This document shows, in pieces, positions 39,695-54,861 of a stretch of DNA of 58,378 nt. Under the pieces are notes generated by a model that worked only from the letters and a program-made list of their open reading frames with translations, did no database searches and was not told where the DNA came from. The DNA is from a virus (taxonomy: Duplodnaviria > Caudoviricetes). The stretch lies in IMG/VR virus record IMGVR_UViG_3300032020_000004, positions 1 to 58,378 of that record; one strand, written 5' to 3'. The translations under genes and the position numbers were made by a program. Positions within the stretch are counted from its first letter, which is position 1. Every line of letters starts with the position of its first letter.

Positions 39695-40757
39695 AGATAA
39701 TCTGGTAAAAATCTATAACGGCGATGCACGCAATATGAGCAAATTGCTAGATAATTCCGTTCAATGCGTGGTGACTTCTCCACCATACTGGGGTTTAAGA
39801 AAGTATTCTGGCTTACCTGATTTGATATGGGGGAATAAGGATTGTGAGCATAGGTGGGGGAATATAATCCCCAATCCGATGTGTAAATCAGGTAAGCACA
39901 GTTCAAAAAGCATTGTCGCCGAAGGCACTAAAATAGCTGAGCACGAGATTAGGATAAATAGCAATCAAGGCTCGTTCTGTTCTCTCTGCGGTGCGTGGAA
40001 AGGTCAGTTAGGGCTTGAACCTACACCCGAACTCTATCTTGACCATCTTGTTGAGATATGCCGTGAGATAAAAAGAGTAATGAGAAAGGACGGCGTATTT
40101 TTCCTTAATTGCGGGGATAGCTATATGAGCCACGGTGGGGACAGGTCTAAAATTGGTGGTTTTCAAGCTAATCCTAATCAAGACAGATTGGAAGCAGAAA
40201 ACTCTATGTCTATGAAGAAGAAAACAAATGATATTCTAAAAGATAAAGACCTTTGCTTAATACCGTTCCGTCTAGCTATTGCCCTACAGAGTGATGGCTG
40301 GTGGGTAAGGTCGATTATTATCTGGTCAAAGCCCAATCCTATGCCAGAGAGCGTTACCGATAGACCCACAGAGAGCCACGAATATATCTTACTTTTAACA
40401 AAATCGGCTCGCTATTACTGGGATGCGGAGGCGGTGCGAGAACCCTATACCGAACCACTGAATCGCTGGGGTGGCCCCGAATTCCGAGATAGTAGCCATA
40501 ATATTAGAAGTGTCTGGGAATTTCCCACACAACCTTACCCCGAAGCCCACTTTGCCGTATTCCCAGAGAAGTTACCAGAGATATGTATTAAGGCAGCCAG
40601 TAAAGTAGGTGACCTAATCCTTGACCCCTTTGTAGGGAGTGGGACTACTCTATGGGTAGCAAAGAAATTGGGTAGGCGGGCTGTGGGGTATGAGTTATCA
40701 GAAGAATACTGTCAGCTTGCCCTTGAAAGAAATAGGCAGATGGCTATGGAAGTATAA
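39678..40757 (+). CDS. Beta-class N4-cytosine/N6-adenine DNA methyltransferase
   Basis: VTSPPY motif IV precedes LDPFVGSGTT motif I. Confidence 0.95.
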   Translation: MNPYFEDNLVKIYNGDARNMSKLLDNSVQCVVTSPPYWGLRKYSGLPDLIWGNKDCEHRWGNIIPNPMCKSGKHSSKSIVAEGTKIAEHEIRINSNQGSFCSLCGAWKGQLGLEPTPELYLDHLVEICREIKRVMRKDGVFFLNCGDSYMSHGGDRSKIGGFQANPNQDRLEAENSMSMKKKTNDILKDKDLCLIPFRLAIALQSDGWWVRSIIIWSKPNPMPESVTDRPTESHEYILLLTKSARYYWDAEAVREPYTEPLNRWGGPEFRDSSHNIRSVWEFPTQPYPEAHFAVFPEKLPEICIKAASKVGDLILDPFVGSGTTLWVAKKLGRRAVGYELSEEYCQLALERNRQMAMEV

Positions 40758-40760
40758 AAT

Positions 40761-40913
40761 ATGATATGTCCCTATTTTACAAAAACTAAAATTAAGTTAC
40801 GCAAGAAACACACTATTGCGGATGAGTGCCAAGTCTGCCCATTAAGGGACGAAACAGGAGACTGTATAAAAGACATACACGAAGATGCTAGTGAAATGGC
40901 TTTGAAATGCTAG
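40761..40913 (+). CDS. Small Cys-rich protein (50 aa)
   Basis: MICPY...CQVCP...C. Confidence 0.45.
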   Translation: MICPYFTKTKIKLRKKHTIADECQVCPLRDETGDCIKDIHEDASEMALKC

Positions 40914-40938
40914 ATTAGGGTTGTAATTCGACAGCGAA

Positions 40939-41493
40939 ATGAAAAAATCGAGTAAAGCTAAAACAGATAAAAGCACAGTGCGAAAGTACCGACACTTCGA
41001 TGAATTGCGGGATTGTCTGGCAAGTGGATGGTCTGTGCCGGCAGTGCATGAATATTTGATTAAGCGCTATGGTCCGGATGGGATACCAACTGCTACAGCT
41101 ATAATGAGATGGCGAGATAAACACTTGGAGCCAGCGGCCCGTGTGATACCGCACCAGGTCATACAGAGCAAGCTCAAAGGAGTGGCGTTCAGAGTTGATG
41201 TCATTGGGCACCTGAGCCGGCTGATTGCTCTGTGTGAGGACAGGGTAGCTCGAGGCATTGCTAAGGAGGATGAGTTTATGGGGATGCCGCTGGCAGTCAA
41301 CGATGGTGTGATACAAGTGTACCTGCAGGCGATAATGGATTATTTGAAGGTAGCACAGGACTTAAACTTGCTGCCAAGCCCGCCACCGCCGCTGTTTGAT
41401 TTCAGGTCGCAGACCCTGGTGGTTTCTCCGGAGACTTTAATCAGGCTGAAGGAGACAGTGAGGGAGATTAAGGCGATGGAAATTGCAAACTAG
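40939..41493 (+). CDS. Putative terminase small subunit
   Basis: N-terminal HTH-like segment and helical C-terminus; upstream of the large terminase. Confidence 0.55.
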   Translation: MKKSSKAKTDKSTVRKYRHFDELRDCLASGWSVPAVHEYLIKRYGPDGIPTATAIMRWRDKHLEPAARVIPHQVIQSKLKGVAFRVDVIGHLSRLIALCEDRVARGIAKEDEFMGMPLAVNDGVIQVYLQAIMDYLKVAQDLNLLPSPPPPLFDFRSQTLVVSPETLIRLKETVREIKAMEIAN

Positions 41494-41671
41494 CATAAGG
41501 TGGCAAATGGCTAATACAGTGTGTTGGTGTGTTAAATGCAAAAAGGAGGTAGTCCCAGTGCGGGGTGAGTTCCAGCATCCTCATTTGGGGAGTCAGAGTT
41601 GCTTGATTTGCCCGGATTGTCACAGCATGGTGATACCGAAGGATGAAACCAGACCGAAGGAGCCTGCATGA
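41483..41671 (+). CDS. Small Zn-ribbon protein
   Basis: WCVKCKK...ICPDC. Confidence 0.6.
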   Translation: MQTSIRWQMANTVCWCVKCKKEVVPVRGEFQHPHLGSQSCLICPDCHSMVIPKDETRPKEPA

Positions 41672-41812
41672 AGCCGCCACTGACCGCTAGTAAGTATGAT
41701 GACTACCAGACGCCGCCGAAGGCGTTAAAGGTTATACCAGAATGATTACAAACCCGGATGGGACAAAGATGATGTGGTTGTGGTTTGATGATTCCCGAGG
41801 AGAGGCCAGCCG

Positions 41813-44209
41813 ATGACGACTGAAGTAATTGCAGCGCTGCCACCTGAAATAGAAGAGTACCGGCAGCTGATTAAGAGCCGGCTGAGGTGGCATACTCGCT
41901 TTGTTCATGGGTATAGTATGCCTTGGCATCAGCTGGTCTGGACTGAGGCACTCGAGGATTTTTCCATCAAGCGTCTGCTGATTGTTGCACCGCCTAAGTA
42001 TGGTAAGGCTTTAGCTTTAGATACACCAATACCAGTCCCGACAGGCTGGAAGACTATGGGAGAATTAAAAGTTGGCGACGCTGTATTCGCTGGTGATGGT
42101 ACGGTCACGAATGTGGTTGGCGTGTCACCGATTTGGAGAGGCCGTCGCGTGTTTCGCGTCGAGGATAAACTAGGTCATTATGTAATCGCTGATGCTGCAC
42201 ACGAATGGATAGTGCGATTGAACCGTGAACGGCCCACGGTGTATACAAGGCATGAGACGGAATGGCTTTATAGGCGCCAGCACGGATTATCTGGCGCTCG
42301 AGCATTTTATCTGGGGGTGCATGGTGGATTAAAACTCCCTGACGTTCCGTTGCCGATACCACCATATACATTAGGTGTCTGGCTAGGAGATGGAGACTCA
42401 GACGCTGGTAGATTCACCTGCGGCGATGCGGACCGGGCCTTCATTTCATCTGAGATAAGAAAAGATGGATTCCAAGTAAAAGACCGCACTAGGTTAAGAG
42501 CCACTATTTACGGGCTGTCTCGCTTATTAAGGATAAATGGACTATTGCAGCACAAGAAAATCCCTGCGGAGTATCTGAGGGCATCGCCGAATCAGAGATT
42601 GTCTCTGTTACAAGGTTTAATGGATACCGACGGGTATGTTGCTAAAGACGGTGATGGCGGTGAGTTTTGCAATATGAATGAGGGGTTGGCTGAACAGGTT
42701 GCCGAACTGGTGGTATCGCTCGGTATGAAGTGCTCTTTGGTTTCTGGTAACGCCATCTGTCAAGGGAAGGACTGTGGTAAAAAATACCGTGTTCTGTTAC
42801 GTGGCGAGAGTGTCTTTCGCTTGCCCCGCAAACTGGCGAGATGCCATAAATCATCAAGGTCTGGTCATTATATCACCATATTGCCTGCGGGGGTGGCTGA
42901 TACTAAATGTATAGAGGTTGAGCATAATTCCCATACTTTCCTGGCGGGAAAGGGTATGTTTCCAACCTGTAATTCTCCGGCGGTCGGTGTTGACTACTTG
43001 GGCTGGCGCATTGGCAATAACCCAGAGGGGTATCATTGTATCTACGTGTCGAACACAGTGTTACAGGCTAATAGGTTCAGCGTAGCCCTGCGTGACACGA
43101 TTGCCTACAATGAGAACTACCGCTTTCTGTATGGCTTGGAGCCTGATGTTAATAAGGGATGGGCGGAAAGGGAGTGGTTTGTCAAAAGAACTAATGAGGC
43201 AGATAAGGACCCGACGCTGCAGGCCTGTGGTGTAGGTGGGCCGCTTCTTGGCGCTACTGTAGAGGAGGTCATATTTGATGATATAGCTGACCAGGAGAAT
43301 ATGGCGACTGAGTATCAGAGGCAGAAGCTAATGGAGTGGGTTAGAGGAACGCCTATGAGCCGTCTGGTCCCTGGGGCGACTAGAGTGATTATGATTTGCA
43401 CTCGGTGGCATGAGAACGATCCGGCTGGCGAGTTTGAGAAAGAAGGCTGGGTAGTTATACAGCAGCAGGCGATTGATGAGGATGGGAAGCTGACCTATCC
43501 AGGCTATTGGACGTGGGAAGATTTAGAGGACCGGCGCCGAGACCTTGGCAACAGACTGTTTGAGATGATGTTTCAGGGCAGGGTAATGCCGGCTGAAGGT
43601 GGTATTATCAGGAAGGAGTGGTGGAGGTACTGGAAGCAGGGCATGGCTCCTTGGCAATTGCCTATCGACAGCTCAGATTTTAAGCCAATCAGGGGGATAG
43701 TTCAGAGCTGGGATACAGCATTCAAGGAGAAGCAGGCTAATGATTTCAGTGCCTGTTCTACTTGGGCTGTATTAGATACTGGCTATTATTTGCTGGATGT
43801 CTGGCGAGGCAAGGTGGAGTTCCCGAGGCTGAAGCAGGTGGCTGTGAGCCTGCATGACCAGTGGAAGCCGATAGCGGTATTGATTGAGGATGCCGCTTCC
43901 GGCCAGTCGCTGATTCAGGAGTTAAAATCTAATACCAGAATACCGGTGATTGCCATTAAGGTTGACAAAGACAAGGTGTCCAGAGCTCATGCGGTGACCC
44001 CGATGTTTGAAGCTGGTAAGGTGTTCTTGCCCGAAGAAGCACCCTGGAGGCCGCAGTTTGAGTATGAGCATGAGATATTCCCCGGTGGTATCAATGATGA
44101 CCAGGTGGACACGACCACGCAGTTTCTGAACTGGGCGAGGAGATATGTGGTAACTGGCCCACAGAAGGCAACAGGGCTGGAGAAGAAATCGATGTGGAAG
44201 GTGGTATAA
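41813..44209 (+). CDS. terL: Terminase large subunit containing an intein
   Basis: Walker A PPKYGK|S, IFDD, TRWHEND; nuclease motifs SWDTA, IEDAASG and DDQVD. Confidence 0.97.
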   Translation: MTTEVIAALPPEIEEYRQLIKSRLRWHTRFVHGYSMPWHQLVWTEALEDFSIKRLLIVAPPKYGKALALDTPIPVPTGWKTMGELKVGDAVFAGDGTVTNVVGVSPIWRGRRVFRVEDKLGHYVIADAAHEWIVRLNRERPTVYTRHETEWLYRRQHGLSGARAFYLGVHGGLKLPDVPLPIPPYTLGVWLGDGDSDAGRFTCGDADRAFISSEIRKDGFQVKDRTRLRATIYGLSRLLRINGLLQHKKIPAEYLRASPNQRLSLLQGLMDTDGYVAKDGDGGEFCNMNEGLAEQVAELVVSLGMKCSLVSGNAICQGKDCGKKYRVLLRGESVFRLPRKLARCHKSSRSGHYITILPAGVADTKCIEVEHNSHTFLAGKGMFPTCNSPAVGVDYLGWRIGNNPEGYHCIYVSNTVLQANRFSVALRDTIAYNENYRFLYGLEPDVNKGWAEREWFVKRTNEADKDPTLQACGVGGPLLGATVEEVIFDDIADQENMATEYQRQKLMEWVRGTPMSRLVPGATRVIMICTRWHENDPAGEFEKEGWVVIQQQAIDEDGKLTYPGYWTWEDLEDRRRDLGNRLFEMMFQGRVMPAEGGIIRKEWWRYWKQGMAPWQLPIDSSDFKPIRGIVQSWDTAFKEKQANDFSACSTWAVLDTGYYLLDVWRGKVEFPRLKQVAVSLHDQWKPIAVLIEDAASGQSLIQELKSNTRIPVIAIKVDKDKVSRAHAVTPMFEAGKVFLPEEAPWRPQFEYEHEIFPGGINDDQVDTTTQFLNWARRYVVTGPQKATGLEKKSMWKVV
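42008..42973 (+). mobile_element. Class 3 intein with LAGLIDADG endonuclease (322 aa)
   Basis: Starts ALALDTPIP (Ala1); W in ADAAHEW, C in TKCIEV, T in PTCN|S; endonuclease motifs LGVWLGDG and LQGLMDTDG. Confidence 0.92.
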
Positions 44210-44269
44210 TGGACAAAGGGGCATTGACGCAAAGTAGTTTGCAGGTGAAAATGAATAAAGAGGAGGTGG

Positions 44270-46678
44270 GTGATGGCTATTAAAGGCAAGAAGGGGGATG
44301 TCAGCCAGGTTATAGGTGTAACCGGCCTGAGAATATGGGGTGGTGTTCTCGGCGAAGAATATTTGGCGGTGCTGAAGGGAACTAGGAAGGTAAAGGTCTT
44401 CCGAGAGATGCAGGATGATGCCGTTATCGGCTGTCTGCTGGATGCTATCATAATGCCACTGATGGCTGCAGAATTTGAGACAGTGCCGGCAGGTGACGCT
44501 GAGAAGGATAAGCAGAATGCCGAGTTTCTCTGGCAGTGCATGAACGATATGACCAAGTATAGCTGGCGGCAGCATGTGCTAGATATGCTGGGCATGCTTG
44601 CCTGGGGCTGGGCGGCCTCAGAGATGGTGTTTAAGAAGAGGTTGGGTCAGGATTCTGATAGACCGTCTCAGTATAATGATGGTAAGCTGGGCTTCCATAT
44701 TCTTGACCCGCGTGGGCAGGAGACGCTGGACAAGTGGAAGATGGATGATGAGTTTAATGTTGAGCTCATGGTGCAGAAAGACCCGAACAGCAGTCAGCTG
44801 ATTGAGATAGAAAGCTGGAAGTTGCTTCATGCCACATTCCGGTCTAGGAAGAGGTCGCCAGAAGGTTTAAGCCCGTTAAGGTCGCTGTATCGTGAGTGGT
44901 ATACCAGAAAGAACTTGGAGGTCATAGAGGCCATCGGCGCTGAGCGTGACCTATGTGGCTTGCCGGTGTTCCGTCTGCCGTATGGTGCTTCTGATGCTGA
45001 CAAGGTGGCAGCGGAGTTATTGATCCGTAATCTCCGTCAGGATGAGGAAGCAGGTCTGGTTTTACCTCCACCCCCAAGTCCGGATGCCAATGTTTCGAAG
45101 TGGGAGTTTGAGCTGATTAGTTCGCCAGGGCAGAAGCAATTTAATGTGCGTGAGATAATCAGAGACTTGAACAAGGTGATCCTGATGAGATTTTTTGCCC
45201 AGTTCTTATTGCTGGGTATGGAGAAAGTAGGCACGCAGGCACTGGTTGAAGGCTCTCAGGACTTTTTCAGCTTGGCGTTGACGTCTGTCCAGCAAGAGCT
45301 TCTGGAGACTTGGAATCAGCAGTTAGTGCCGTTACTGTTTGCTATGAATCCGCAGATGCTCTCCGGCGCTTCAGGGATGCCGACGATAGATTGGGCTGGT
45401 CCTGGTAGCAAGGATGTACAGAGGGTTGTGACCATGGCTAAGGATATGGTGGCGGCTCAGCTTCTGACTCCGGAAGAGAAGCTGGAGGATTATTTGAGGA
45501 CGATCACAGGACTCCCAGACAGGCCCGAAGGTATTGGTCAAGGTCCCCGGTCGCCAGTGGCACCGCCAATGCCAGGCTTGCTGTCCTATGAGTGGTATGA
45601 GTTGCCTGATGGTAGCTGGCTGGCCAGACCGAAGAAGGAGAAGATTCAGCTACATGCTCAGCCTGATGTTGGCGATGTGCATATTCCAACAGCAATAAAG
45701 AGGAAGAGGCGTGACCACTGTATGCTCTGTGAGGAGCCGCCGATTGTTGAGGTGCTCTGGGCTGAAGGTATGGCGCGGGCTTGGTTCTGTGCTGCCTGCT
45801 ATAAGGAGTGGAAGGCTGAATCGGAGACACATGAGGTTGTCGAAGAGCGAAAGGTTGAAGGCGGGACTGTGCCTCAGCGGTGGGCAGGCTATGAACAGGA
45901 GGTTGATGAGGTTGCCAGCTTTGTTGATGTGGCCGGCATAAAGGGAAGGCGTGGCAGTTCGAAGATTGGCAAAGCGACGAATGAGTATCAGGGGCTGCTG
46001 ACCAATATCTATGACCGGTGGGCTAAGACAGCCCAAAAAGCTATTCTGGTGGCTGATGAGGCTGGTGCAAAAGGCAAGGAGCTGACGAAGGTGATTGATA
46101 AGCAGCTGCTGGCGTTAGCCAAGGGGCTGAAGGCTGCAGCTCAGAAGCATATTGGTGAGGCGTTCCGTCTTGGTATGAAAGGTCAGCTTGACCGGCAGGC
46201 AGAGAAGCTGTTGGAGAAGCAGGTAGAGCAGAATAGTAAGTTTGTTGATGAGAGTCTGATCCCGAGAATCAGAGAAAAGATTGTAGCGCACTTGGATGAG
46301 CTCAAGGAAAAGCATCAGTACCAGCTTGATGCAGTTGGTTTGCTCGGGTTGCTGGTGTCGATGAGAAGTGAGCCGGTAGGCTTTGCTGGCGCTTTCTGGA
46401 GTGGTATTTTTATAGGTGCAGGCTTGAATAGGCAGCGAGAAGATAAGAAGAGAATAGAGGAGGGCATGAAGCCGCGGCGTGTAAGGTGGGTTCTTGACCC
46501 TGCGGCTGAGCACTGCCAAAAGTCGGCTCATGGTCATGGTTGTCCGGACCTGGCTGGTGAGTATGAGAGCTGGGAAGATATGCCAACAGTGCCAGCGGGA
46601 AGCGTGACCTGCTTGGGAAATTGCCGTTGTAGAATCATGATAGAAAATGATTCAGGAGAGTGGGAATATGCTGCTTAA
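44270..46678 (+). CDS. Portal protein (Mu gp29/DUF935-like) fused to a MuF-like minor head domain
   Basis: Follows terL; PEGLSPLRSLY and IGAERDLCGLP portal motifs; C-terminal RWVLDP.AEHC...C.GNCRC. Confidence 0.88.
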   Translation: MMAIKGKKGDVSQVIGVTGLRIWGGVLGEEYLAVLKGTRKVKVFREMQDDAVIGCLLDAIIMPLMAAEFETVPAGDAEKDKQNAEFLWQCMNDMTKYSWRQHVLDMLGMLAWGWAASEMVFKKRLGQDSDRPSQYNDGKLGFHILDPRGQETLDKWKMDDEFNVELMVQKDPNSSQLIEIESWKLLHATFRSRKRSPEGLSPLRSLYREWYTRKNLEVIEAIGAERDLCGLPVFRLPYGASDADKVAAELLIRNLRQDEEAGLVLPPPPSPDANVSKWEFELISSPGQKQFNVREIIRDLNKVILMRFFAQFLLLGMEKVGTQALVEGSQDFFSLALTSVQQELLETWNQQLVPLLFAMNPQMLSGASGMPTIDWAGPGSKDVQRVVTMAKDMVAAQLLTPEEKLEDYLRTITGLPDRPEGIGQGPRSPVAPPMPGLLSYEWYELPDGSWLARPKKEKIQLHAQPDVGDVHIPTAIKRKRRDHCMLCEEPPIVEVLWAEGMARAWFCAACYKEWKAESETHEVVEERKVEGGTVPQRWAGYEQEVDEVASFVDVAGIKGRRGSSKIGKATNEYQGLLTNIYDRWAKTAQKAILVADEAGAKGKELTKVIDKQLLALAKGLKAAAQKHIGEAFRLGMKGQLDRQAEKLLEKQVEQNSKFVDESLIPRIREKIVAHLDELKEKHQYQLDAVGLLGLLVSMRSEPVGFAGAFWSGIFIGAGLNRQREDKKRIEEGMKPRRVRWVLDPAAEHCQKSAHGHGCPDLAGEYESWEDMPTVPAGSVTCLGNCRCRIMIENDSGEWEYAA

Positions 46679-47396
46679 AAGAGGTCGTGAAATTGGGATT
46701 AAGTCTGGCGATTTATATGTTAAGGCATCCTGTATCAATTGTGGCCTAGAGAGATGGGTTAAGAAGGCGGATTTCGATGCTGGCAAACAGCAGTATTGCA
46801 AAAAGTGCTATCTAGCCCCGAAGATAGAAGGTGACCGCAAACGGATATTGGCTGAGCATCCTGATATAAAGGATGTTAAGCATAGTTCTGAATTGGGTAA
46901 ATCTGGGGATTGTTTATATGTTTTGGTCGAATGTCCTGAGTGCGGTAAACCAAAATGGATGAGGAAATCTGCTTATGAACGTGGTATAAACCTGTTATGT
47001 CGCTCTTGTGGTGGCCGTCAGGGTATGAATAAACGAGGCAGATACGGCTGTAAAAAGCATCAAGGCTATGTGATGGTTACTGTGCATCCAAATGACCCGA
47101 TGCGAGTTATGGCTCATAAGAGTGGCTGGGTGTTGGAGCACCGATTGATCATGGCTCGACATCTTGGCAGGCCTTTGCTGAAAGGTGAGCAAGTGCACCA
47201 TAGACCGGATGTAGCCAAAGACGACAACCGAATAGAAGGACTTTACCTAATGCCTGACCTTGCCGCCCATGCTAGGCTACTTCCTTGTGCAAATTGTGAG
47301 CTGAAAAAAGAGATCCGTTTACTGCGCTGGCAGATTAAGGAACAGAATGAGCAAATTAAGAATTTGACTTCTCTTTTGATGCTGAGGGAGGAATAA
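46647..47396 (+). CDS. HNH homing endonuclease with duplicated Zn-ribbon N-terminus
   Basis: WVLEHRLIMA and QVHHR...KDDNRIE motifs; paralogue of 16438-17019. Confidence 0.9.
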   Translation: MIQESGNMLLKRGREIGIKSGDLYVKASCINCGLERWVKKADFDAGKQQYCKKCYLAPKIEGDRKRILAEHPDIKDVKHSSELGKSGDCLYVLVECPECGKPKWMRKSAYERGINLLCRSCGGRQGMNKRGRYGCKKHQGYVMVTVHPNDPMRVMAHKSGWVLEHRLIMARHLGRPLLKGEQVHHRPDVAKDDNRIEGLYLMPDLAAHARLLPCANCELKKEIRLLRWQIKEQNEQIKNLTSLLMLREE

Positions 47397-47399
47397 GAT

Positions 47400-47588
47400 A
47401 TGGCAGATGCTGAAATTCGTTGTAGGAAATGCGGCAAGCTCCTAGCTAAGGATGTTGAAGGCGTACTGGAAGTGATGAATGGCAATAAGGCTATCAGGGT
47501 GTATGGGGCTGTAGCGGTGGCTATTGATTGCCCACGTTGCGGAGCCACTGTTGATTTGCCCCGTAAATTGCCACTGAGGAGTAAGTAA
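47400..47588 (+). CDS. Mu Com-like Zn-ribbon regulator
   Basis: EIRCRKCGKLLAK...IDCPRCG matches the Com pattern IRCxxCxKLL...CPRC. Confidence 0.75.
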   Translation: MADAEIRCRKCGKLLAKDVEGVLEVMNGNKAIRVYGAVAVAIDCPRCGATVDLPRKLPLRSK

Positions 47589-47589
47589 G

Positions 47590-47811
47590 TTGCCGAGCAG
47601 GAAGTGGCGGTTAGGTATATTGATACTGTGCCGGAAGTGTGGCCAGCCTGGAGGCACGTTAAAGAGGATTGATAAAGGCGTTTATGAGCATGAGCAGTGT
47701 CCGGTTGTTAAACCGAAGGCGAGGAAAAGTAGTCTTGTAGTTGCTAGTAGCCCACTGGTGACAGCGCGGCGCAAACTGCCACCCGGGCTGTTGCGGACAG
47801 GTCATTCTTGA
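47590..47811 (+). CDS. Small Zn-binding protein
   Basis: CRKCGQPGGTL...YEHEQCP. Confidence 0.5.
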   Translation: MPSRKWRLGILILCRKCGQPGGTLKRIDKGVYEHEQCPVVKPKARKSSLVVASSPLVTARRKLPPGLLRTGHS

Positions 47812-47836
47812 CAAGAAATCACGGAGGTGTTATAGT
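47808..47836 (+). promoter_or_regulatory. Sigma70 promoter of the head operon
   Basis: TTGACA-17 bp-TATAGT with TG. Confidence 0.88.
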
Positions 47837-47842
47837 AGTACT

Positions 47843-47923
47843 AATTTAATAAGAGGCTAGAAGCCCGGAGCCGATAGAGGCTGGAAGCCCGACTTGCGGT
47901 ATTGTGAGTCGGGCTTTTGTTTT
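47843..47923 (+). ncRNA. Leader/attenuator RNA, copy 2, ending in an intrinsic terminator
   Basis: AGAGGCT(A/G)GAAGCCCG x2 flanking GAGCCGAT; terminator AAGCCCGAC...GTCGGGCTTTTGTTTT. Confidence 0.75.
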
Positions 47924-48022
47924 GCTCACTGAAGATGGTGGAAGGCCAGGCTTGAAGGTGTAGGCGGGAGCCAGTTTCTAGGGCTGGCAGTAAGTGGGCA
48001 TAGTGGCAGTAGGAGGTGATCG

Positions 48023-49894
48023 ATGCCGTTCGCAGGCTATCCTAATTTTGCTGCTTGTGTAGCTGATAAGCAGGGTAAGGCTGATGACCCTGCAGCGCTG
48101 TGTGCTTGGTTAGAACATGAGACGACAGGCAAGTGGCCAGGTGAGATGACGCAGGGTCTGCCGGCTGGTATCAAGGATAAGTTCTGGCAAGCCTTTGGTG
48201 GATACATGGATAATGAGAAGAATGAGGCAAAGGCTATGGAGTTTGCGGTAAAAGCAGTTGCTGATGCTGGCTGGGTCTGGCAGAAGCATGGCTGGGCTCG
48301 TAAGGCTGAGCACAAGATGCAGATGCAGGCAGTGTTAGGCGTCCCGATATTTGCTACGGGCACGCATAATGACGAGAAGTATACGGCTGCCGACCTGAAG
48401 GAGATGGTCACAGCTTTTAAGGAACTCAAGGGAATACTGGACCCACCGGTGAAGATTGGGCATACCAGCGATGAATTTAACCGAGCTCTTGCCGAAAAGA
48501 TGGGCATAGAGCCAGAGCTTATAAAAGGCGAAAATGGCAATGGCGTGATGGCGTTTGGCTGGATAGATGACCTGCGTGTGTCCGGTAATGTTTTGTATGC
48601 TGACCTGGCTGATGTTCCGCAGCCAGTTGCCGAACTGATTGAGAGTAAGAGCTACAATAAGGTCAGTGCTGAGGTGATGTTTGATTTTAAGCACAAGGAT
48701 AAGACGTATCCCAAAGTGTTGTGCGGACTGGCGTTGCTTGGAGCTGAGTTGCCGGCTGTTCGTGAAAGTGGTTTAGAGACAGCGGCTGTTTATATGGTGA
48801 CCCGAGAGCCTGATTCGGTGATTGAGTTTGCCCTGGACTTGGATGCCGATGTTACGTTCGAGATGCTGCAGCCAGCAATGACTGATATTGAGGAGGCGAT
48901 TGAGAGGCAGATGAAGGGCAAGGCAGGCGTCAGTATAATCCGAGCTATGTGGAAGGAGGTGAAAGGTAAGGTAAAACACATGCTGGAGGCAAAGAAGCAC
49001 AGCATGGGTGACATTCCGCCTGAGATTCAGGCGTATGCAGATGCAAATTTCCAAGGCAATGTCGAAGGCCTGATTAGATGGGCTGGTGAGGTGGGCTTCA
49101 ATGGTTGCGTGAGTGCGGTTTCAGGTAAAGAGGGTATTACTGACCCTGAACGCTTATGCGGATGGCTGAAGGCGCAAGCACGTGAACGTGGATGGCTTTC
49201 ACCGGCACACCAGTCATTAGAAAAAGGAGAGGAGGTCCAGAACATGAACAAGGAATTTTTGAAGGCTTTGGGGCTGGCCGAGTCTGCTAAGGATGAGGAT
49301 GTTATGGCAGCACTGAAGAAGCTCCAGGACGGAAAGGTCGATTTGACAGCATTGTTTACCGCTCTTGGCTTGCCACCCGAGGCAACTCTTGAGGATGCGG
49401 TCAAGGCAATCGGTGCTCTAAAGGAGCAGGCTGCTGCCGCTGTTAGTGGTGCGACAAAGCAGTTCAGCGATAGAGTTACCCAGCTCGAGAAGGATAACAA
49501 GGCGCTGAAGCGCGAGAACCGCAAGGCTTATTTTAAGGAGATTGCTGCTGGGCTGAAGGCAATCAGCGGCACTCCGGATGAGCTCGCCGAAGAGCTTGTC
49601 AGCCTTGAGGAGTCTGCTGGTGAGGAGACAGTCAAGAAAATCCTGGCACGGTATCAGGACCAGAATAAGCGTTTGATTGCCGCCGGCGTGTTCAAGGCCA
49701 AGGGCACTTCTGCAGCGGGTGGTGAAGAGGAAGACCATGAGTTCCTCAAGAAGGTGAAAGCGCATATGCAGGAGAAGCATGTAGACGAGGCAACAGCGCA
49801 GGCTGTAATCCGCAAGGCTGAGCCTGTTCTGTTCAAGGACTACATGGCCACGAGAAAAATCGTTACCCGAGCTGTCGAAGGCAGCGAGGACTAA
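48023..49894 (+). CDS. Prohead protease/scaffold (Mu gpI-like) with extra N-terminal domains
   Basis: PVKIGH, AFGWI, YNKVSAE and LALLGAELPAV motifs; coiled-coil C-terminal scaffold. Confidence 0.88.
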   Translation: MPFAGYPNFAACVADKQGKADDPAALCAWLEHETTGKWPGEMTQGLPAGIKDKFWQAFGGYMDNEKNEAKAMEFAVKAVADAGWVWQKHGWARKAEHKMQMQAVLGVPIFATGTHNDEKYTAADLKEMVTAFKELKGILDPPVKIGHTSDEFNRALAEKMGIEPELIKGENGNGVMAFGWIDDLRVSGNVLYADLADVPQPVAELIESKSYNKVSAEVMFDFKHKDKTYPKVLCGLALLGAELPAVRESGLETAAVYMVTREPDSVIEFALDLDADVTFEMLQPAMTDIEEAIERQMKGKAGVSIIRAMWKEVKGKVKHMLEAKKHSMGDIPPEIQAYADANFQGNVEGLIRWAGEVGFNGCVSAVSGKEGITDPERLCGWLKAQARERGWLSPAHQSLEKGEEVQNMNKEFLKALGLAESAKDEDVMAALKKLQDGKVDLTALFTALGLPPEATLEDAVKAIGALKEQAAAAVSGATKQFSDRVTQLEKDNKALKRENRKAYFKEIAAGLKAISGTPDELAEELVSLEESAGEETVKKILARYQDQNKRLIAAGVFKAKGTSAAGGEEEDHEFLKKVKAHMQEKHVDEATAQAVIRKAEPVLFKDYMATRKIVTRAVEGSED

Positions 49895-49912
49895 CAGGAA
49901 GAGGTGAAATAG

Positions 49913-50299
49913 ATGGCAAACAATATTGATGGACCTGAGATCACCCTGAAGGCATACGGCGACCTGTCCGCTTACCAGTTCCATATTATGAAGGTCGGCA
50001 CGGATGGCAAGGCTAATCTGGCAACTGACCCAGATGACCATACGGCCTGCATGATTGGGATACTCCAAAACAAGCCCGATGCTGCAGATGAACCGGCAGT
50101 GGTTAGAATTGAGGGAGTTGCTAAAGTAGTGGGTGGGGCTACAATTGCTGCCGGCACAAAGGTGACATGCGATGGTGACGGCCACCTGGCCGCGGCAGTT
50201 TCTGGCGATAATGTCATTGGCATTGCGCTTGAAACTGCTGGTAGCACTAAAATCACCCAAATCTTGCTGTGCCATGGCTCGACTATAAGCGACGCCTAA
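49913..50299 (+). CDS. Capsid decoration/cement protein (DUF2190-like)
   Basis: IGILQNKP, G..KV..G..IAAG and IGIALE motifs. Confidence 0.85.
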   Translation: MANNIDGPEITLKAYGDLSAYQFHIMKVGTDGKANLATDPDDHTACMIGILQNKPDAADEPAVVRIEGVAKVVGGATIAAGTKVTCDGDGHLAAAVSGDNVIGIALETAGSTKITQILLCHGSTISDA

Positions 50300-50328
50300 G
50301 TTTAAGAGAGAGGAGGAGGTGAAATAAA

Positions 50329-51270
50329 ATGGCACAACCAACACCGAGTGATGTCCATATTGATGCTGCGTTAAGCAACATCTCGATAGCCTACCGGAAT
50401 GACAGCTACGTGGCTCAAAAGGTATTCCCGATTGTCCAGGTAGACAAGCAGTCAGACAAGTACTTCATATTTAGCAAGGCGTTCTGGTTCCGCAACAGTG
50501 TGGAGCGCAGAGGCCCCGGCTCTCGGTATGCGGAAGGTGGACTTGAGTTGAGCAGCACCAATTACGAGTGTATCAACAAGGGTCTGAGCTTCCCGCTGCC
50601 CTGGGAATCGATTGAGAACCAGGATGCAGCGATTGACCTTGAGTCTGACGGCGCTGAGTGGCTGGCTGACCAGTTCCAGCTGGACCGGGAGATAGCCCTG
50701 GCTGCCAAGATCTTCAATGCTTCTGCTTGGGGCACGACAGCTGGGCTGTCAGGAACCAGTATGTGGAGCGACTATGCCAACAGTGACCCGATTAGCAACA
50801 TCGAGACAGCGAGGGAGACGGTTAAGAAAGCAATTGGCCGTTACCCCAATGTCATGCTGATGGGCGCTGAGGTATGGGATAAGCTCAAGTTCCATCCTGA
50901 CCTGCTTGATATCTACAAGCACACGTCGGTTGCTGTTCTGACCCCTGACCTGGTGGCTAAGGTCTTCGATGGCATTGAGCAGCTGCTAATCGGCAATGCG
51001 ATTTACAACAGCACTGCTGAAGGCGTTGCTTTCAGTGGTGGCTATATCTGGCCGAAGAATGTGTTGCTGCTCTATGTGCCGAAGAGCCCGAGCATCCGAA
51101 CACCGGCAGCTGGCTACACCTTTGTCTGGAAGCAGAATGGCTATGCCATCGCTATCGAGCGTGTGGAAGAGCGTCTGCGAAAGAGGGATGTGTTGCTGGC
51201 TGACCATGCCTTTGACCAGAAGGTGGTCGGCAGCGACTGCGGCTATGAGATCACAACTGCAGTAGCATAA
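50329..51270 (+). CDS. Major capsid protein (lambda gpE-like)
   Basis: DVHIDAALSNISIAY, FPIVQVDKQSDKY and WSDYANSDPI motifs. Confidence 0.93.
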   Translation: MAQPTPSDVHIDAALSNISIAYRNDSYVAQKVFPIVQVDKQSDKYFIFSKAFWFRNSVERRGPGSRYAEGGLELSSTNYECINKGLSFPLPWESIENQDAAIDLESDGAEWLADQFQLDREIALAAKIFNASAWGTTAGLSGTSMWSDYANSDPISNIETARETVKKAIGRYPNVMLMGAEVWDKLKFHPDLLDIYKHTSVAVLTPDLVAKVFDGIEQLLIGNAIYNSTAEGVAFSGGYIWPKNVLLLYVPKSPSIRTPAAGYTFVWKQNGYAIAIERVEERLRKRDVLLADHAFDQKVVGSDCGYEITTAVA

Positions 51271-51292
51271 CCGAAAACAGAATAGATGCAGT

Positions 51293-51308
51293 GTTGTAGC
51301 GCTGCAAA
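51293..51308. promoter_or_regulatory. 16-bp palindromic site after the major capsid gene
   Basis: GTTGTAGCGCTGCAAA, intergenic. Confidence 0.65.
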
Positions 51309-51326
51309 CGGAAGGAGGTTTCCGAT

Positions 51327-51617
51327 ATGAAGTTCGAGGTGCTAAAGCCGTTTACTTGGGCAGGGCAAGACCTGAAGGTGGGTGAGACTTTGGAGATTCC
51401 AGATGAGTCTCCGAAGATTGGCTCGCTTGCTAGGTCAAAGTTTATTCGTGTTGCAAGCGCCCTGCCCAAGTTTGTTTCCAAAGAGCTACCAAAGGTCGAA
51501 GAGGTAGTTCAGGAGATGGGATCCGAGGAGAAGGGCCGGTCTGTTGAGGTGGCTGCTACTCGGGACCCGAAAGAGATAATTCGCCAGGCGAAAGCCAAAG
51601 CCGCTGCTAAAAAGTAG
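51327..51617 (+). CDS. Small head-associated protein
   Basis: VLKPF...LKVGETLE pattern; follows the capsid gene. Confidence 0.65.
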   Translation: MKFEVLKPFTWAGQDLKVGETLEIPDESPKIGSLARSKFIRVASALPKFVSKELPKVEEVVQEMGSEEKGRSVEVAATRDPKEIIRQAKAKAAAKK

Positions 51618-51651
51618 CGGCAATCTGAGGTGAGGAGGAGGAAAAAATAAA

Positions 51652-53010
51652 ATGCAGAGATGGCGAGGGACTCATGTTTTTGACCAGGTGAGGCTGTCTG
51701 ATGACAAGTATCTGAAATTTGGAGACAGCCAGGATTTCACCATTCGCTGGGATGGCACGAATAACCGGTTGGAGTTGTCCAGAGCGGCTAATACGCTGAC
51801 TGACCCGGGCCGGCAGATTTATGCCAGCTTCACAGCGACTGGTGCAGTGGCTTCAGGGAAGTCGCTAACTGGCATCCAGATTAGTGCCACGTTCAATGGT
51901 ACTGGCAATAATGGCAGTGTGACGGCGGCTGAGTTCAAGGCTCGGCATACGACAGGCAACGCAGCGACGGTAGTCCAGCTGAGGGGCGTAGTCGGCAACG
52001 CCGATGCCAAGAACGGCATTGTGACGACAGCCTATGCCGTTGAGGGGTCGATTGATGTCAGTGCCGGCGGCTCGGTTGGCACCAGTGCTTGTTTCCATGG
52101 CAACCTGAACAACAGCGGTACGGTGACCACCAGCTACGGCGTGTTCGTGGAGGGTGTCTCAGGCAACAACTTGACCAAAGGTATCTTCATGCAGTACGTC
52201 ACCACAGGCGTTGGTATCAGCGCTGCGACAACTGGTATCGACATCGGTAATGTCACGACCGGTATCACGTTCACAGGGACGATAGGTGTAGCGATTACAT
52301 TTGCCAGCACCACCCTGACGCCTGATTCTACTAGGAGTAACTGTGCTCTCGGCATAGGTACTCGGGCAACTGAAAAAGATATCACAATGGCTGCTGCTGC
52401 TACTCAACATCTTGACCCGATTCAAATGAACCTCAATATCATCGGAGCTAATCCTACTGGGTCAAGCACAGTCAATGGTATTTATCAGTTGATCACTCAC
52501 GATACCACTGATATGACTAACCTGAGACTAAAGTGTGCTGACTGGAATGTAGTTATTAAAAAGGATGTCTTAGATGCCTATGTTTTTCAAGGCGAAATAG
52601 ACTTCAATGCTTCGGGTATTGCCGTAGGCAATGAGGCTTGTGTTGTAGGCTTGGTGCTAGATGCTGGGGCAAATGCTGTTACCGCCTCCGAGGGATGGAG
52701 AGGTCTAAGTATAACCCTGCGTGGTGCTGGAACTCCTGCCAATTCACAGGCAATACTCATAGATGGCGCAAGTGATATCACTGTAAGAGAGGGAATATGG
52801 ATAATGGGTGGGGGCATAACTGCTGCCATTCGGCTTGCAAGAGTAGATAATTATGCAAACAGTCCCATCAACCTTTTAGCCCTCCCTCCAGCAGGATATA
52901 CTCCAGTATCAAGTCATGGTGGCATTGCCAATGGTGGCACAGTTGTTAAGATAGCTTGCTTGGTGGGGACTACTCCCTACTACCTTCTAGCAAGCACCGC
53001 ACCTGCATAA
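51652..53010 (+). CDS. Beta-rich Gly/Thr/Ala virion protein (head fibre-like)
   Basis: DDKYLKFGDSQDFTIRWDG N-terminus and TTGIxI repeats. Confidence 0.7.
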   Translation: MQRWRGTHVFDQVRLSDDKYLKFGDSQDFTIRWDGTNNRLELSRAANTLTDPGRQIYASFTATGAVASGKSLTGIQISATFNGTGNNGSVTAAEFKARHTTGNAATVVQLRGVVGNADAKNGIVTTAYAVEGSIDVSAGGSVGTSACFHGNLNNSGTVTTSYGVFVEGVSGNNLTKGIFMQYVTTGVGISAATTGIDIGNVTTGITFTGTIGVAITFASTTLTPDSTRSNCALGIGTRATEKDITMAAAATQHLDPIQMNLNIIGANPTGSSTVNGIYQLITHDTTDMTNLRLKCADWNVVIKKDVLDAYVFQGEIDFNASGIAVGNEACVVGLVLDAGANAVTASEGWRGLSITLRGAGTPANSQAILIDGASDITVREGIWIMGGGITAAIRLARVDNYANSPINLLALPPAGYTPVSSHGGIANGGTVVKIACLVGTTPYYLLASTAPA

Positions 53011-53059
53011 ACTTCAAGGGCTTTGGGGGTGAGCCTTAATCACCCCAAAGGAGGCTGAG

Positions 53060-53188
53060 ATGGCGGAGAAGAAGTATAAAGTCTGTCCGAAGTGTGGCGA
53101 CAAGATTCTGGCTGAAAGCCCGAAGACCGTCTGTGACGTCTGTGATGTAGAGTACGTCCCCGAGGTCAAGAAGAAAAAGAAGAGGTAG
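53060..53188 (+). CDS. Small Zn-ribbon protein (42 aa)
   Basis: CPKCG...CDVC; AAGGAGG RBS. Confidence 0.65.
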   Translation: MAEKKYKVCPKCGDKILAESPKTVCDVCDVEYVPEVKKKKKR

Positions 53189-53278
53189 GCAGCTGACTGC
53201 CTAAGAAAATCTTAGATTGGGGCGGTGGTTGCTGTTGGGTGGTCACCGCCCCAAGTGCTATCAGCAAAGGAGGCTGAA

Positions 53279-53719
53279 ATGGGCAAACAGGCAAAGCTCA
53301 AAGCAGATAGGCGTGCAGTGCGGGATGCGGAGAAGCTGAAAGGCTGGAAGATAGATATAAGGCCGTATGAGGTCAGAGTTATGGATGTTGACGAGAAGGG
53401 TCAGGTTAGAATGAAAGGCGGTAAGCCTGTCTGGACAACTGATGAGTTTGATGTCCAGGGGTCGCTGGCCGATATTATTTTCAACCGAGACCTGAACCTG
53501 AAACCGGCTGAGGCATTTGAGGCCTACGACCTATCAAAGAAAATAAAGTCAGCCAAGATGCATGTTGTACTGGACAGCAAGGAAATGGCTATGGTTAGAA
53601 GAGCATACGATTCTCTCAAAGGTATTGGTGAGAATATGGTGCCGTTCCTTATGCGAATCCGGGATGCCGAGGAAATCCAGCTGGCGGAGGTGAAAGGTGA
53701 GACTGATAATAAAGCCTAG
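53279..53719 (+). CDS. Hypothetical protein
   Basis: AAGGAGG RBS before the ATG at 53279. Confidence 0.7.
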   Translation: MGKQAKLKADRRAVRDAEKLKGWKIDIRPYEVRVMDVDEKGQVRMKGGKPVWTTDEFDVQGSLADIIFNRDLNLKPAEAFEAYDLSKKIKSAKMHVVLDSKEMAMVRRAYDSLKGIGENMVPFLMRIRDAEEIQLAEVKGETDNKA

Positions 53720-53897
53720 CCGGAAAAGTGGTGAAAGGGATACTGTTTTTACGACTGAATATGGCGGCGTGAAGTATTCTGTTGGTCCACAGCCGGCGCA
53801 GGTCCCGGATGATGTCGGGCGCTATCTGTTGACTTCGTTCTCGGCACTTATTGAGTTGGCGGAGGAGCCGGCTAAGAAGTCCAAGAAAGATAAGTAG
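53697..53897 (+). CDS. Small hypothetical protein
   Basis: QVPDDVGRYLL motif. Confidence 0.6.
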   Translation: MRLIIKPSRKSGERDTVFTTEYGGVKYSVGPQPAQVPDDVGRYLLTSFSALIELAEEPAKKSKKDK

Positions 53898-53913
53898 GTG
53901 GAGGAGGTGTAGC

Positions 53914-54270
53914 ATGAAACAAGTCAGACGGGAAATGTCTGCCGTCAGCGTAATCTCAGCGCTGATAGATTTTTCTGAAGAAGATGACCTTTCAGCCGCT
54001 GTTGATATTGGCAGCTTTATGGTCGTTGGTTTACTGATACCCACGATTGATAGTGGCAATGTAACGTTTCTGGTGTGTGATACTCTCGCTGGGACGTACC
54101 AAGACCTGAAGAAAAGCGATGCCTCTGCAGTTAGCATTACCGCTGGCACAGGTAATTTCGCAGTCAGTGCTGATGACCTGACGCCCTTGGCAGCGTTTCG
54201 ATTTATAAAAGTAAAGACGGCAGTCGCTCAAACAGAGGACCGCACTTTCAAGTTTATTGTGAAGATGTGA
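53914..54270 (+). CDS. Putative virion beta-sandwich protein
   Basis: LSAAVDI...GLLIP...VTF...RFIKV...Q..DRTF. Confidence 0.65.
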   Translation: MKQVRREMSAVSVISALIDFSEEDDLSAAVDIGSFMVVGLLIPTIDSGNVTFLVCDTLAGTYQDLKKSDASAVSITAGTGNFAVSADDLTPLAAFRFIKVKTAVAQTEDRTFKFIVKM

Positions 54271-54278
54271 GGAGTAAC

Positions 54279-54470
54279 ATGAAAAGCTGGTTCAAGTGTC
54301 CTAAGTGTGGGATGGAGTGGGGCTTCCCTGACTTGACAGTAGAGCAGGCTTGTCTTGAACGTAGAGACAGGTGCCCAAGGTGCGGAACGGTTGCTGCTCC
54401 TGTTGGTGAAGTTACAGCTCCTCCTGTTAAAAAATCATTGGTTGGGAGGTTGATACATGGCAGGAAGTAA
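54279..54470 (+). CDS. Small Zn-ribbon protein
   Basis: CPKCG...CPRCG. Confidence 0.6.
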   Translation: MKSWFKCPKCGMEWGFPDLTVEQACLERRDRCPRCGTVAAPVGEVTAPPVKKSLVGRLIHGRK

Positions 54471-54861
54471 ATCAGATTATTTAGAGAATGAATTACTTGA
54501 CCACGTGCTAGGAGGTGCCGATTGGGCAAGGCCCGCTACGGTTTATATTGCCCTTTATACTGTAGCACCAACTGACGCTGGTGGTGGTACAGAGGTATCT
54601 GGCGGTGCTTATGAAAGAAAAGCCGTCACCAATAATGCTACTAACTTTCCAGCAGCATCCGGTGGAGCAAAGTCCAATGGCGCTGAGATTGTCTTCATAG
54701 AGGCAACGGCGTCTTGGGGAACTGTAGTAGCTTTTGGTATCTTTGATGCTATTACTGGTGGTAACCTGCTCTACTGGGCAGATTTGACCACTCCCAAGGC
54801 AATAGGTAGTGGCGATACACCCAAGTTTGCAGTTGGTGATTTAGACTTAACTGAGGATTAG
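54457..54861 (+). CDS. Conserved small tail-fibre-associated virion protein
   Basis: SDYLENELLDH, YIALYT..P.DAGGGTEVSGGAY.R and FDA.TGGNLL motifs. Confidence 0.85.
   Translation: MAGSKSDYLENELLDHVLGGADWARPATVYIALYTVAPTDAGGGTEVSGGAYERKAVTNNATNFPAASGGAKSNGAEIVFIEATASWGTVVAFGIFDAITGGNLLYWADLTTPKAIGSGDTPKFAVGDLDLTED

Follow-up and report, generated by a model that had tools for sequence, protein, structure and literature searches.

In textbook accounts, the late genes of phages are switched on by the N and Q proteins of lambda, by put RNA, by sigma factors or by activators, and attenuator hairpins that are locked by a protein are known mainly from bacterial metabolic operons. We analyzed a linear IMG/VR virus record, IMGVR_UViG_3300032020_000004 (58,378 bases, estimated to be ~70% complete; the whole stretch is referred to below as the window), which carries two paralogous leader RNAs, each ending in a predicted intrinsic terminator: W1 at 32.5 kb and W2 at 47.8 kb, upstream of the head genes. 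A small gene of the Com type, which encodes a zinc ribbon, lies just before W2. In our judgment there is a slightly better than even chance that the late operons of this phage are controlled by transcription attenuation that depends on a Com-type protein.

For Com of phage Mu, systematic evolution of ligands by exponential enrichment (SELEX) gave the consensus NGAGNNCC(N)2-3GAGNNCCNN; binding favours the hairpin form, and Com protects a GA dinucleotide (PMC6483171). In attenuators of the ANTAR type, a dimeric protein binds both hairpins of the leader (PMC3369931). The ribonucleic antiterminator (RAT) hairpin of the BglG type is likewise locked by a protein, and bglG itself lies downstream of the regulated terminator and feeds back on its own expression (PMC12591593). 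The words "phage" and "zinc" are absent from that source, a 2025 review of RNA-binding antiterminators, and no description of a Com-type antiterminator was found in a literature search that left most subscription journals outside its range.

Results

Two leader RNAs with competing folds

A preliminary description of this DNA had pointed to a near-consensus sigma-70 promoter at 47808-47836 that feeds a leader ending in a strong intrinsic terminator before the protease/capsid operon, and both features were recovered. The promoter, with 11/12 consensus matches and a TG extension, is the sole site with more than 9/12 in 40001-58378; the leader W2, ~75 nucleotides (nt) in length, ends in a strong predicted terminator ~100 nt before the head protease gene. 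This terminator, called as 47882-47919 plus the T tract, ranks first among the 12 terminator-like sites in 40001-58378, and the predicted folding energies are -24.0 kcal/mol for the terminator segment and -34.3 kcal/mol for the 84-nt leader (z = -3.6). The same description had noted two copies of AGAGGCT(A/G)GAAGCCCG, the second overlapping the 5' arm of the terminator; they are found at 47852-47867 and 47876-47891, 24 nt apart with zero mismatches, and the second copy indeed provides the 5' arm (47884-47894). The suggestion that the first copy pairs with the 3' arm is borne out in part: since this copy has the same GAAGCCCG, the pairing is possible as read from the sequence, but the actual competitor of the terminator is another structure, an outer helix combined with the second hairpin, both of which covary (see below). 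By eye, no conserved leader peptide was found.

It should be noted that the distance between the W2 terminator and the start codon of the protease gene (47924-48022, ~100 nt) is roughly 10-25 nt in relatives, and the extra stretch contains a GCCAG...CTGGC hairpin.

The paralogue that had been placed near 32485-32568 is real. W1 has a promoter with 12/12 consensus matches, its leader spans 32486-32570, and it precedes W2 by 15.4 kb; the covariance model described below, run with all filters off, finds exactly two copies in the window. The interval of 32.6-47.4 kb yielded no strong promoter. A possible terminator at 32979-33007 lies inside the aminotransferase gene and was treated as a chance occurrence.

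Both leaders follow one design, namely, two similar units that each consist of a 5' (U)AGAG flank, a 3-4-bp stem of the GGC/GCC type (P1 in the first unit, P2 in the second), a loop mostly ending in GA, and CCG(A/G). The terminator 5' arm begins with the 3' strand of P2. The outer helix (4-5 bp) and P2 together make an imperfect antiterminator hairpin of ~30 nt that encloses the whole 5' arm of the terminator; because this hairpin holds the 5' arm, it excludes the terminator.

We compared pairing across the homologous leaders. P1 is 84% paired in 11 leaders; pairing in the terminator stem reaches 93%, and four of its pairs show changes on both sides. Among 12 leaders, P2 is 94-97% paired and the outer helix 85-93%, compared to 20-42% in slid controls, in short alignments whose 3' end was set at the proposed partner strand and which, thus, favour the outer helix. 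The central pair of the outer helix is CG in six leaders, UA in five and UG in one; the third pair of P2 is CG in five, UA in five and UG in two, and two of the three P2 pairs are changed on both sides. The covariation score is 0.466, compared to 0.268 +/- 0.041 in shuffled alignments, and none of the 500 shuffles reaches the observed value. The G-U wobble pairs favour pairing at the RNA level over mere DNA symmetry. Folding of the nascent RNA, done independently, gives P1, the outer helix and P2 in 9/11 leaders. Where the antiterminator segment folds in the modelled way (11 leaders), the antiterminator hairpin is predicted at -4.9 to -10.5 kcal/mol and the terminator at -14.6 to -31 kcal/mol; the antiterminator fold being much weaker, termination is expected to be the default state, and some factor would have to lock the weaker fold. 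These comparisons support the view that the leader is a conserved two-state RNA, with both exclusive folds under selection.

The possibility that this motif is already catalogued was checked against Rfam. There was no match at the gathering score anywhere in the window, and at E <= 10 there was no meaningful or riboswitch match to the leaders, the best one (16.7 bits) being the rnk leader, matched via its terminator only. Judging from these searches, the leader RNA family is absent from the Rfam catalogue.

Homologous leaders in related phages

Locus handles (L, G) are used below only where loci have to be told apart. Protein-guided retrieval was productive: the zinc ribbon found L015 and L016 in viral contigs, and an alignment of the protease N-terminus led to 49 metagenome loci. 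A covariance model seeded with nine leaders identified true leaders in L015/L044, L016/L041, L042, L038/L039, L040, L043, L048, L037 and L083/L084, a leader cut at its 5' end in L036, and a weakly scoring one in L046; about ten related metagenomic phages have homologous leaders. The model also recovered leaders outside its seed, L037 (49.9 bits, E 1.8e-12) and the 43.7-kb record G001 (37.8 bits, E 1.4e-9), and for this reason the conservation is considered to exceed chance. In protease loci that are more distant, e.g., L045 and L056, a promoter is present and the leader absent.

By eye, TTGACA and an extended -10 lie upstream of 11/13 leaders, with a distance from the -10 to the first unit of ~8 to 40 nt. 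The leader stands with its own promoter upstream of the head protease gene in W2, L015, L016/L042, L038, L040, L043, L048, L037/L036 and G001. In the last of these, the W2-type leader is preceded at 15.2 kb by one of the W1 type, which adjoins a ParB-like gene downstream; since this spacing matches the 15.4 kb of the window, the two-operon arrangement is conserved.

Two further observations concern G001. Its W2-type leader (L120 10380-10470) is preceded by two tandem TTGACA promoters, and a 35-amino acid (aa) open reading frame (ORF) lies between the leader and the protease gene. The first residues of this ORF are shared with an ORF inserted after the leader in L037, of which it may be a remnant.

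Searches by pattern were rejected as a source of leaders. The first exact-motif pattern gave 12 loci in viral contigs, all of them chance occurrences; a two-unit pattern gave 17, of which two were real, both on contigs already retrieved otherwise; and a pattern scan of genome contigs gave 35, all of them terminators selected by the pattern, at 30 bits or less, with no first unit in the four alignments shown.

The Com-like zinc ribbon

The 62-aa ORF just upstream of W2 (47400-47588), which had been likened to Mu Com, belongs to the Com family by comparison. Against PF10122, the whole protein scores 23.2 bits (cut-off 22.9), with no single stretch passing, and it matches phrog_6417, "translational regulator", at E 9e-6. 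Its close family comprises six clusters among 5.8 billion proteins; 9/12 close sequences match PF10122 at E <= 0.01, and 10/12 also match the generic Zn_ribbon_3. A profile search returned 66 representatives, with PF10122 as the top family (20/64 at E <= 1e-3, best E 2.3e-9). The cysteines C8, C11, C44 and C47 are invariant in the 12 close sequences; in 64 sequences, the first three are invariant and C47 is nearly so (at least 90%). The two CxxC knuckles fit the four-Cys, ~40-65-residue pattern of the Com family. The window protein does not have the short spacer of L123, L124 and L125, as ~18 extra residues stand between its knuckles; in the AlphaFold2 model, these residues are beta strands (predicted local distance difference test, pLDDT, 73). 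One of the short relatives, the 40-aa protein of L123, is an unambiguous member of the Com family (38.5 bits to PF10122). On the strength of these profile matches, the 62-aa protein is assigned to a long-spacer branch of Com zinc ribbons.

Structure and atlas searches were less informative. Foldseek gave no PDB match below E = 1 for the model, PDB sequence searches returned generic zinc ribbons only, and the protein atlas contains only unnamed clusters for this protein and for its 73-aa neighbour. A complex prediction with two copies of the zinc ribbon scored 0.35, compared to a mark of 0.42.

An orthologue of the 62-aa protein is encoded upstream of eight leaders (W2, L015, L016, L037, L038, L040, L043 and G001), so that the expected co-occurrence of leader and Com gene holds for these eight; the leaders for which it does not hold are discussed below.

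The Com motif itself was searched for in the window. The strict form occurs once, with both strands scanned, and this single occurrence is P1 of W1. The loosened form occurs at four sites on the + strand (32491, 47853, 47877 and 41660), three of which are leader hairpins. As read from these hairpins, the leaders match a class of motifs rather than one invariant sequence.

Com-like genes in other viral contigs

Three distant Com-like genes (L123, L124 and L125) have a small hairpin directly downstream, the 3' strand of which opens an intrinsic terminator, and the next gene encodes a prohead protease, a portal or a scaffold-capsid protein. The nascent RNA of L123 folds as an outer helix with a P2-like hairpin. 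No cultured phage matched the Com-like protein and the scaffold protein of short-Com loci.

We then surveyed short Com-like genes in viral contigs, using the best 80 of 303 relatives, which gave 67 distinct loci, 65 of them with at least 200 nt downstream. A hairpin with a T run, at -25 to +130 of the stop codon, follows 28/65 Com-like genes and 95/475 other ORF ends of the same loci. The strict motif, GAGNNCC-N2-4-GAGNNCC, is found near the stop codon in 15/65 loci, with a background of 0.004 per 170 nt; the loosened motif, GAGNNNC-N1-5-GA(G/A)NNCC, is found in 24/65, with a background of 0.013 per 170 nt, i.e., ~0.9 expected. The called terminator coincides with the motif in 19 of the 24 loosened-motif loci, and in the printed cases that were read, the second half-site begins the terminator 5' arm. 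The NN positions covary so that the half-sites stay paired (GAAC/GUUC, GCAC/GUGC, GCUU/AAGC and GCGU/ACGC). The bipartite word of these loci is the SELEX consensus of Mu Com (PMC6483171).

The 21 distinct downstream genes include head families, scaffolding phrog_172 in four cases, phrog_2932 in three and maturation protease phrog_80 in two. They also include DNA methyltransferase families (phrog_56, phrog_116 and phrog_1996, in three cases each) and one tape-measure protein. The classical Mu layout, with a methyltransferase gene downstream, is present among other Com-like loci. Where a methyltransferase-like ORF follows the motif, there is mostly no terminator at the hairpin (L171 and L204) or it is called elsewhere (L187, L188 and L202); L183, in which the motif lies at a called terminator before such an ORF, is an exception. 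The methyltransferase loci fit the classical translational layout of Mu, and the head-gene loci would then form a new, terminator-linked class. Examples of the latter are loci with GAGCGCC-AAA-GAGCGCC ahead of a scaffold gene and the type of L124 (a metagenome-assembled genome of Clostridia), with a portal gene.

A separate case is L212 (1183-1400, Pueribacillus sp. YX66), in which a 41-aa Com-like gene is followed by GAGAGCC-TTT-GAGCCCC. A second hairpin pairs with the GGGGG ribosome-binding site of a gene that, by eye, is tape-measure-like, and there is no U tract. This looks like a translational, Mu-type version of the switch before a tail gene. Vreelandella maris QX-1 is the other isolate genome with a Com-like locus, and the loci of both isolates have the translational or the methyltransferase layout.

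Gene layout of the window

The + strand carries almost all long ORFs and every gene annotated in the window (Table 1). A megablast search of phage records with 17 kb gave no match, and the identity of the capsid protein to any cultured phage record stays below 36%. Early and replication genes occupy ~13.9-32.4 kb, and several extended -10 promoters lie there. The operon that starts at 32.6 kb includes homing endonucleases, a DegT aminotransferase, a ParB-like nuclease, a gene resembling 3'-phosphoadenosine-5'-phosphosulfate (PAPS) reductase, a DNA methyltransferase, a large terminase with an intein-like insert, and the portal. The protease/scaffold gene comes next, at 48,023, ahead of the genes for decoration, major capsid and tail proteins. 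PHROG and Pfam scans of ~50 window proteins gave replication, DNA-modification, homing-endonuclease and structural genes, and no regulator. In this ~70% complete record, no ANTAR (PF03861), CAT_RBD, HutP, NusG or sigma-70 region 2 was found, and the Q families PF06530, PF03589 and PF06323 had no match at E <= 1.

Table 1. Features of the window discussed in the text, grouped by leader and followed by other genes
Feature	Position	Strand	Remark
W2 promoter, sigma-70 type, extended -10, TTGACA-17-TG-TATAGT	47808-47836	+	11/12 consensus matches
W2 unit 1	47852-47867	+	AGAG flank; hairpin P1 (47855-47858 with 47862-47865, loop AGA); CCG
W2 antiterminator outer helix, 5' strand GCCG	47870-47873	+	pairs with 47897-47900, in the terminator loop
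W2 unit 2	47876-47891	+	AUAGAG flank; hairpin P2 (47879-47882 with 47886-47889, loop GGA)
W2 intrinsic terminator (predicted)	47884-47923	+	5' arm 47884-47894, loop 47895-47906, 3' arm 47907-47917, U tract 47915-47923
62-aa CxxC...CxxC ORF, Com-family zinc ribbon with long spacer	47400-47588	+	candidate RNA-binding antiterminator
73-aa basic CCHC small ORF	47590-47811	+	Arg-rich N-terminus; second candidate factor
Head maturation protease/scaffold fusion	48023-49894	+	first gene of the putative W2-controlled operon, then decoration and major capsid; Pfam/PHROG scans
W1 promoter, with TG	32452-32479	+	12/12 consensus
W1 leader	32486-32570	+	P1 32493-32496 with 32502-32505; outer helix 32511-32514 with 32539-32542; P2 32520-32522 with 32530-32532; 49.9 bits in the covariance model
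W1 terminator	within 32486-32570	+	arms 32526-32535 and 32555-32564, plus U tract
Strict bipartite motif of the Mu Com SELEX type, GAGTGCC-TA-GAGCACC	32491-32506	+	forms P1 of W1
Free-standing homing endonuclease ORFs	32607-32930, 37107-37553, 25522-25986, 46647-47396, 35012-35599, 16438-17323		25522-25986 LAGLIDADG-like by eye only
Peptide deformylase	27927-28388		auxiliary gene
DegT-type aminotransferase	32928-34033		auxiliary gene
PAPS-reductase-like gene	38451-39215		auxiliary gene
DNA methyltransferase	39678-40757		auxiliary gene

The four auxiliary genes, taken together, point to a module for the modification of DNA or sugars that the W1 leader would control. Free-standing homing endonucleases are abundant in this phage: two match phrog_5046 and have a LAGLIDADG-type motif, and three or four are of the HNH type. 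The one at 32607 sits between leader W1 and the aminotransferase gene, and in L037 (~2686-3300) the leader and the protease gene are separated by an ORF that looks by eye like an HNH gene; the near-identical L036 does not have this ORF. The large terminase gene (41813-44209) is split by an intein-like insert, with LAGLIDADG_3 and Hom_end at residues ~250-334, between the ATPase and nuclease parts. The portal (44270-46678) is an 802-aa protein with a Mu-type portal domain and a long C-terminal extension that has Cys-rich segments; in relatives such as L046, this extension is a separate gene. Further small Cys-rich ORFs of no assigned family lie at 32241-32462, 29805-30047 and 29929-30276, one of which ends inside the W1 promoter. 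None of these ORFs is homologous to the Com-like family, nor are the small Cys-rich ORFs beside L046, L048 and W1.

Discussion

In the mechanism that we propose, each leader would keep its operon off by default, W2 that of head and tail morphogenesis, and W1 that of DNA modification and packaging. Host RNA polymerase would start constitutively at the sigma-70-type promoter and would make P1, then the antiterminator hairpin and then the 3' arm of the terminator. Without the factor, the 3' arm would displace P2, and transcription would stop at 47915-47923; with a Com-type protein on the AGAG/GA hairpins, the 5' arm would stay sequestered, and the polymerase would read into the operon. The most likely factor is the neighbouring Com-family zinc ribbon, which may bind as Mu Com binds the hairpin beside the stem that inhibits mom translation; since the stem that is kept from forming is, in this case, a predicted terminator, the outcome would be read-through. 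The two units may mean two protomers. The zinc ribbon is encoded at the far end of the W1 operon, right ahead of the W2 promoter; this would make the circuit a cascade with positive feedback that is set off by leaky read-through, comparable to that of bglG.

The preliminary description had already proposed a Com homologue as an antiterminator. The two-state RNA, the Com-type hairpins and their recurrence elsewhere argue for this part of the proposal, in which initiation at the promoter, termination, binding of the protein to RNA and the direction of its effect are predicted from sequence. After the wider survey, the identification of the Com-like protein as the factor appears more likely to be right than wrong.

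Several observations weigh against it. Three leaders have no orthologue of the zinc ribbon in the sequence available, namely, L048 (1.6 kb upstream), L083 (0.7 kb) and L046. Synteny within the lineage discriminates poorly, because the portal, the small ORFs and the protease travel as a block, and the basic CCHC ORF is an equally placed candidate for the factor. The zinc-ribbon gene itself is part of the W1 operon and comes after the leader of that operon; combined with the lack of a strong promoter at 32.6-47.4 kb, this means that the start of the circuit would need leaky read-through. The motif, too, is variable: the W2 hairpins, with loops of 3 nt, fit the loosened form only; L016, L038, L040, L048 and L083 fit neither form; and the half-motif CC(N)2-3GAG is weakly enriched in the leaders (13 occurrences versus 6.8 +/- 2.7 in shuffles, 50/2000 of which reach 13). 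In the survey, 20% of the other ORF ends have terminators as well, phylogenetic independence is lacking among the 65 loci, and the terminator caller and the motif patterns were written after three examples had been seen.

The explanation that comes next is the same RNA switch worked by a different factor, i.e., the CCHC protein, another early phage protein or a host protein, with the Com-like gene as a mere neighbour. The two-state RNA is well supported whatever the factor, the early region encodes many small Cys-rich ORFs, and the leaders of L048, L083 and L046 stand without a nearby Com-like orthologue. The Arg-rich CCHC ORF has tblastn matches in L015, L016, L037 and L038, and a similar ORF was seen by eye in G001; however, tblastn gave no match in L040 or L043, and no family was matched in the Pfam/PHROG scans or in the protein atlas. 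Since this explanation also leaves without account the unrelated contigs in which Com genes recur together with Com-consensus hairpins overlapping terminators, we consider it unlikely.

Another explanation is a constitutive attenuator or small-RNA gene, in which there would be no switch, and the leader would provide a fixed low read-through, insulation, or a trans-acting RNA of ~75 nt. A strong promoter followed by a strong terminator is what such a gene would look like, and homing-endonuclease genes are inserted just after leaders (W1 and L037), so that this spot tolerates insertions like ordinary intergenic DNA. Conversely, the covariation of P2 and the outer helix shows that a fold in competition with the terminator is kept by selection, and the unit motif is repeated and conserved; a plain terminator needs neither feature. 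The probability of this explanation appears to be low, about one chance in ten.

A slightly lower probability is given to a factor-independent RNA of the put type, in which the leader would bind the polymerase in cis and make it resistant to termination, as do putL and putR of HK022. The likeness lies in two paralogous RNAs of ~70-80 nt per genome, placed past strong promoters and with two stem-loops each (PMC9378689), and no known antiterminator family is encoded in the window. However, the terminator of the leader itself overlaps the second hairpin, which is the mark of a regulated attenuator and not of a constitutive polymerase modifier, and the terminator exceeds the antiterminator fold in predicted stability by 10-20 kcal/mol. 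The number of terminator-like sites in the window does not clearly exceed the shuffled expectation, no strong intrinsic terminator that would require processivity was seen within the downstream operons, and the link to the Com motif is left unexplained.

Finally, a Q-like, DNA-loaded modifier that acts on polymerase at a promoter-proximal pause, or a small-molecule riboswitch, is very improbable: the order of regulator gene, late promoter, short terminated RNA and late genes mirrors Q-PR'-tR' of lambda, AT-rich words resembling a -10 were seen by eye in the initially transcribed region of several leaders, and the outer helix can coexist with the terminator as a pseudoknot, but no Q family, NusG or sigma region 2 was found in the window, the distance from the -10 to the first unit is variable, no riboswitch of Rfam was matched even at the permissive threshold, and the conserved unpaired bases, few and duplicated in both units, suit a protein better than a ligand pocket.

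Returning to attenuation by a Com-type protein, the novelty would consist in the use of a known RNA-binding family for transcription attenuation, a claim that we hold to be a little more probable than its opposite. A broader claim, that Com zinc ribbons are widespread, unrecognised RNA-binding antiterminators that switch on head-morphogenesis operons in many unrelated phages, is tentative, and we place it somewhat below an even chance. In its general form, the switch would be a clamp on a GAGNNCC-N-GA(G/A)NNCC hairpin, the second half-site of which doubles as the 5' arm of an intrinsic terminator; the version in the window would then be more elaborate, as it has a promoter of its own and comprises two hairpin units and two regulated operons. 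If this is true, a zinc-ribbon family of 40-65 aa that is easily overlooked, and at best annotated as "translational regulator", controls the transcription of head genes in many uncultivated phages, and the Com family has a second mode of action. The com-mom control of Mu would become a special case in which Com opens a neighbouring inhibitory stem, and many small "hypothetical" genes located just before scaffold, protease or portal genes would be accounted for. It would also mean a new RNA family for the catalogue and a compact protein-RNA switch for engineering.

Comparison with known systems

The preliminary description had gone further and held that the Com-like protein functionally replaces lambda Q, which is an overstatement: the design suggests local attenuation like that of RAT and ANTAR systems, and not loading at the promoter of the Q type. 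The PR'-tR' region of lambda is similar in its constitutive promoter, promoter-proximal terminator and regulator gene just upstream; however, Q acts processively after loading on DNA at a sigma-dependent pause, and the window yielded no member of a Q family. The putL and putR elements of HK022 also come as two paralogous leader RNAs of ~70 nt per genome just downstream of promoters (PMC9378689), whereas put needs no protein and has no built-in terminator, and all leaders of the window type hold a covarying terminator. The conserved hairpin that competes with the terminator sets these leaders apart from both lambda Q and put.

In the RAT of BglG, SacY and LicT, an imperfect hairpin of ~30 nt with internal loops overlaps the 5' arm of the terminator, as it does here (PMC12591593). 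The differences are that no CAT RNA-binding domain was found in the window, there is no likeness in sequence, and the BglG-type systems are controlled by sugars and the phosphotransferase system (PTS). The ANTAR systems (EutV, NasR and AmiR) share two small tandem hairpins with stems of 3-4 bp, the second of which is exclusive with an intrinsic terminator (PMC3369931). In contrast to the ANTAR hexaloops with A1 and G4, the loops of the window type have 3-7 nt, a conserved 5' AGAG flank and GA at the 3' end of the loop, and the window, at its estimated ~70% completeness, has no ANTAR domain (PF03861).

The closest system is com-mom of phage Mu. In both cases, the protein is a small zinc ribbon with four cysteines that belongs to PF10122 of Pfam, its gene stands just ahead of the target, and the target, known for Mu and putative here, is a short hairpin with GAG...CC words and GA in the loop, which adjoins an inhibitory stem-loop (PMC6483171). 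In Mu, the inhibitory stem hides the start codon of mom, and control is translational, whereas the stem in the window is a predicted terminator with a U tract that lies 100 nt before the start codon, suggesting transcriptional control. The presumed targets in the window are head morphogenesis genes and not a DNA-modification gene, the protein is ~18 residues longer between its knuckles, and the leader has its own promoter and two hairpin units.

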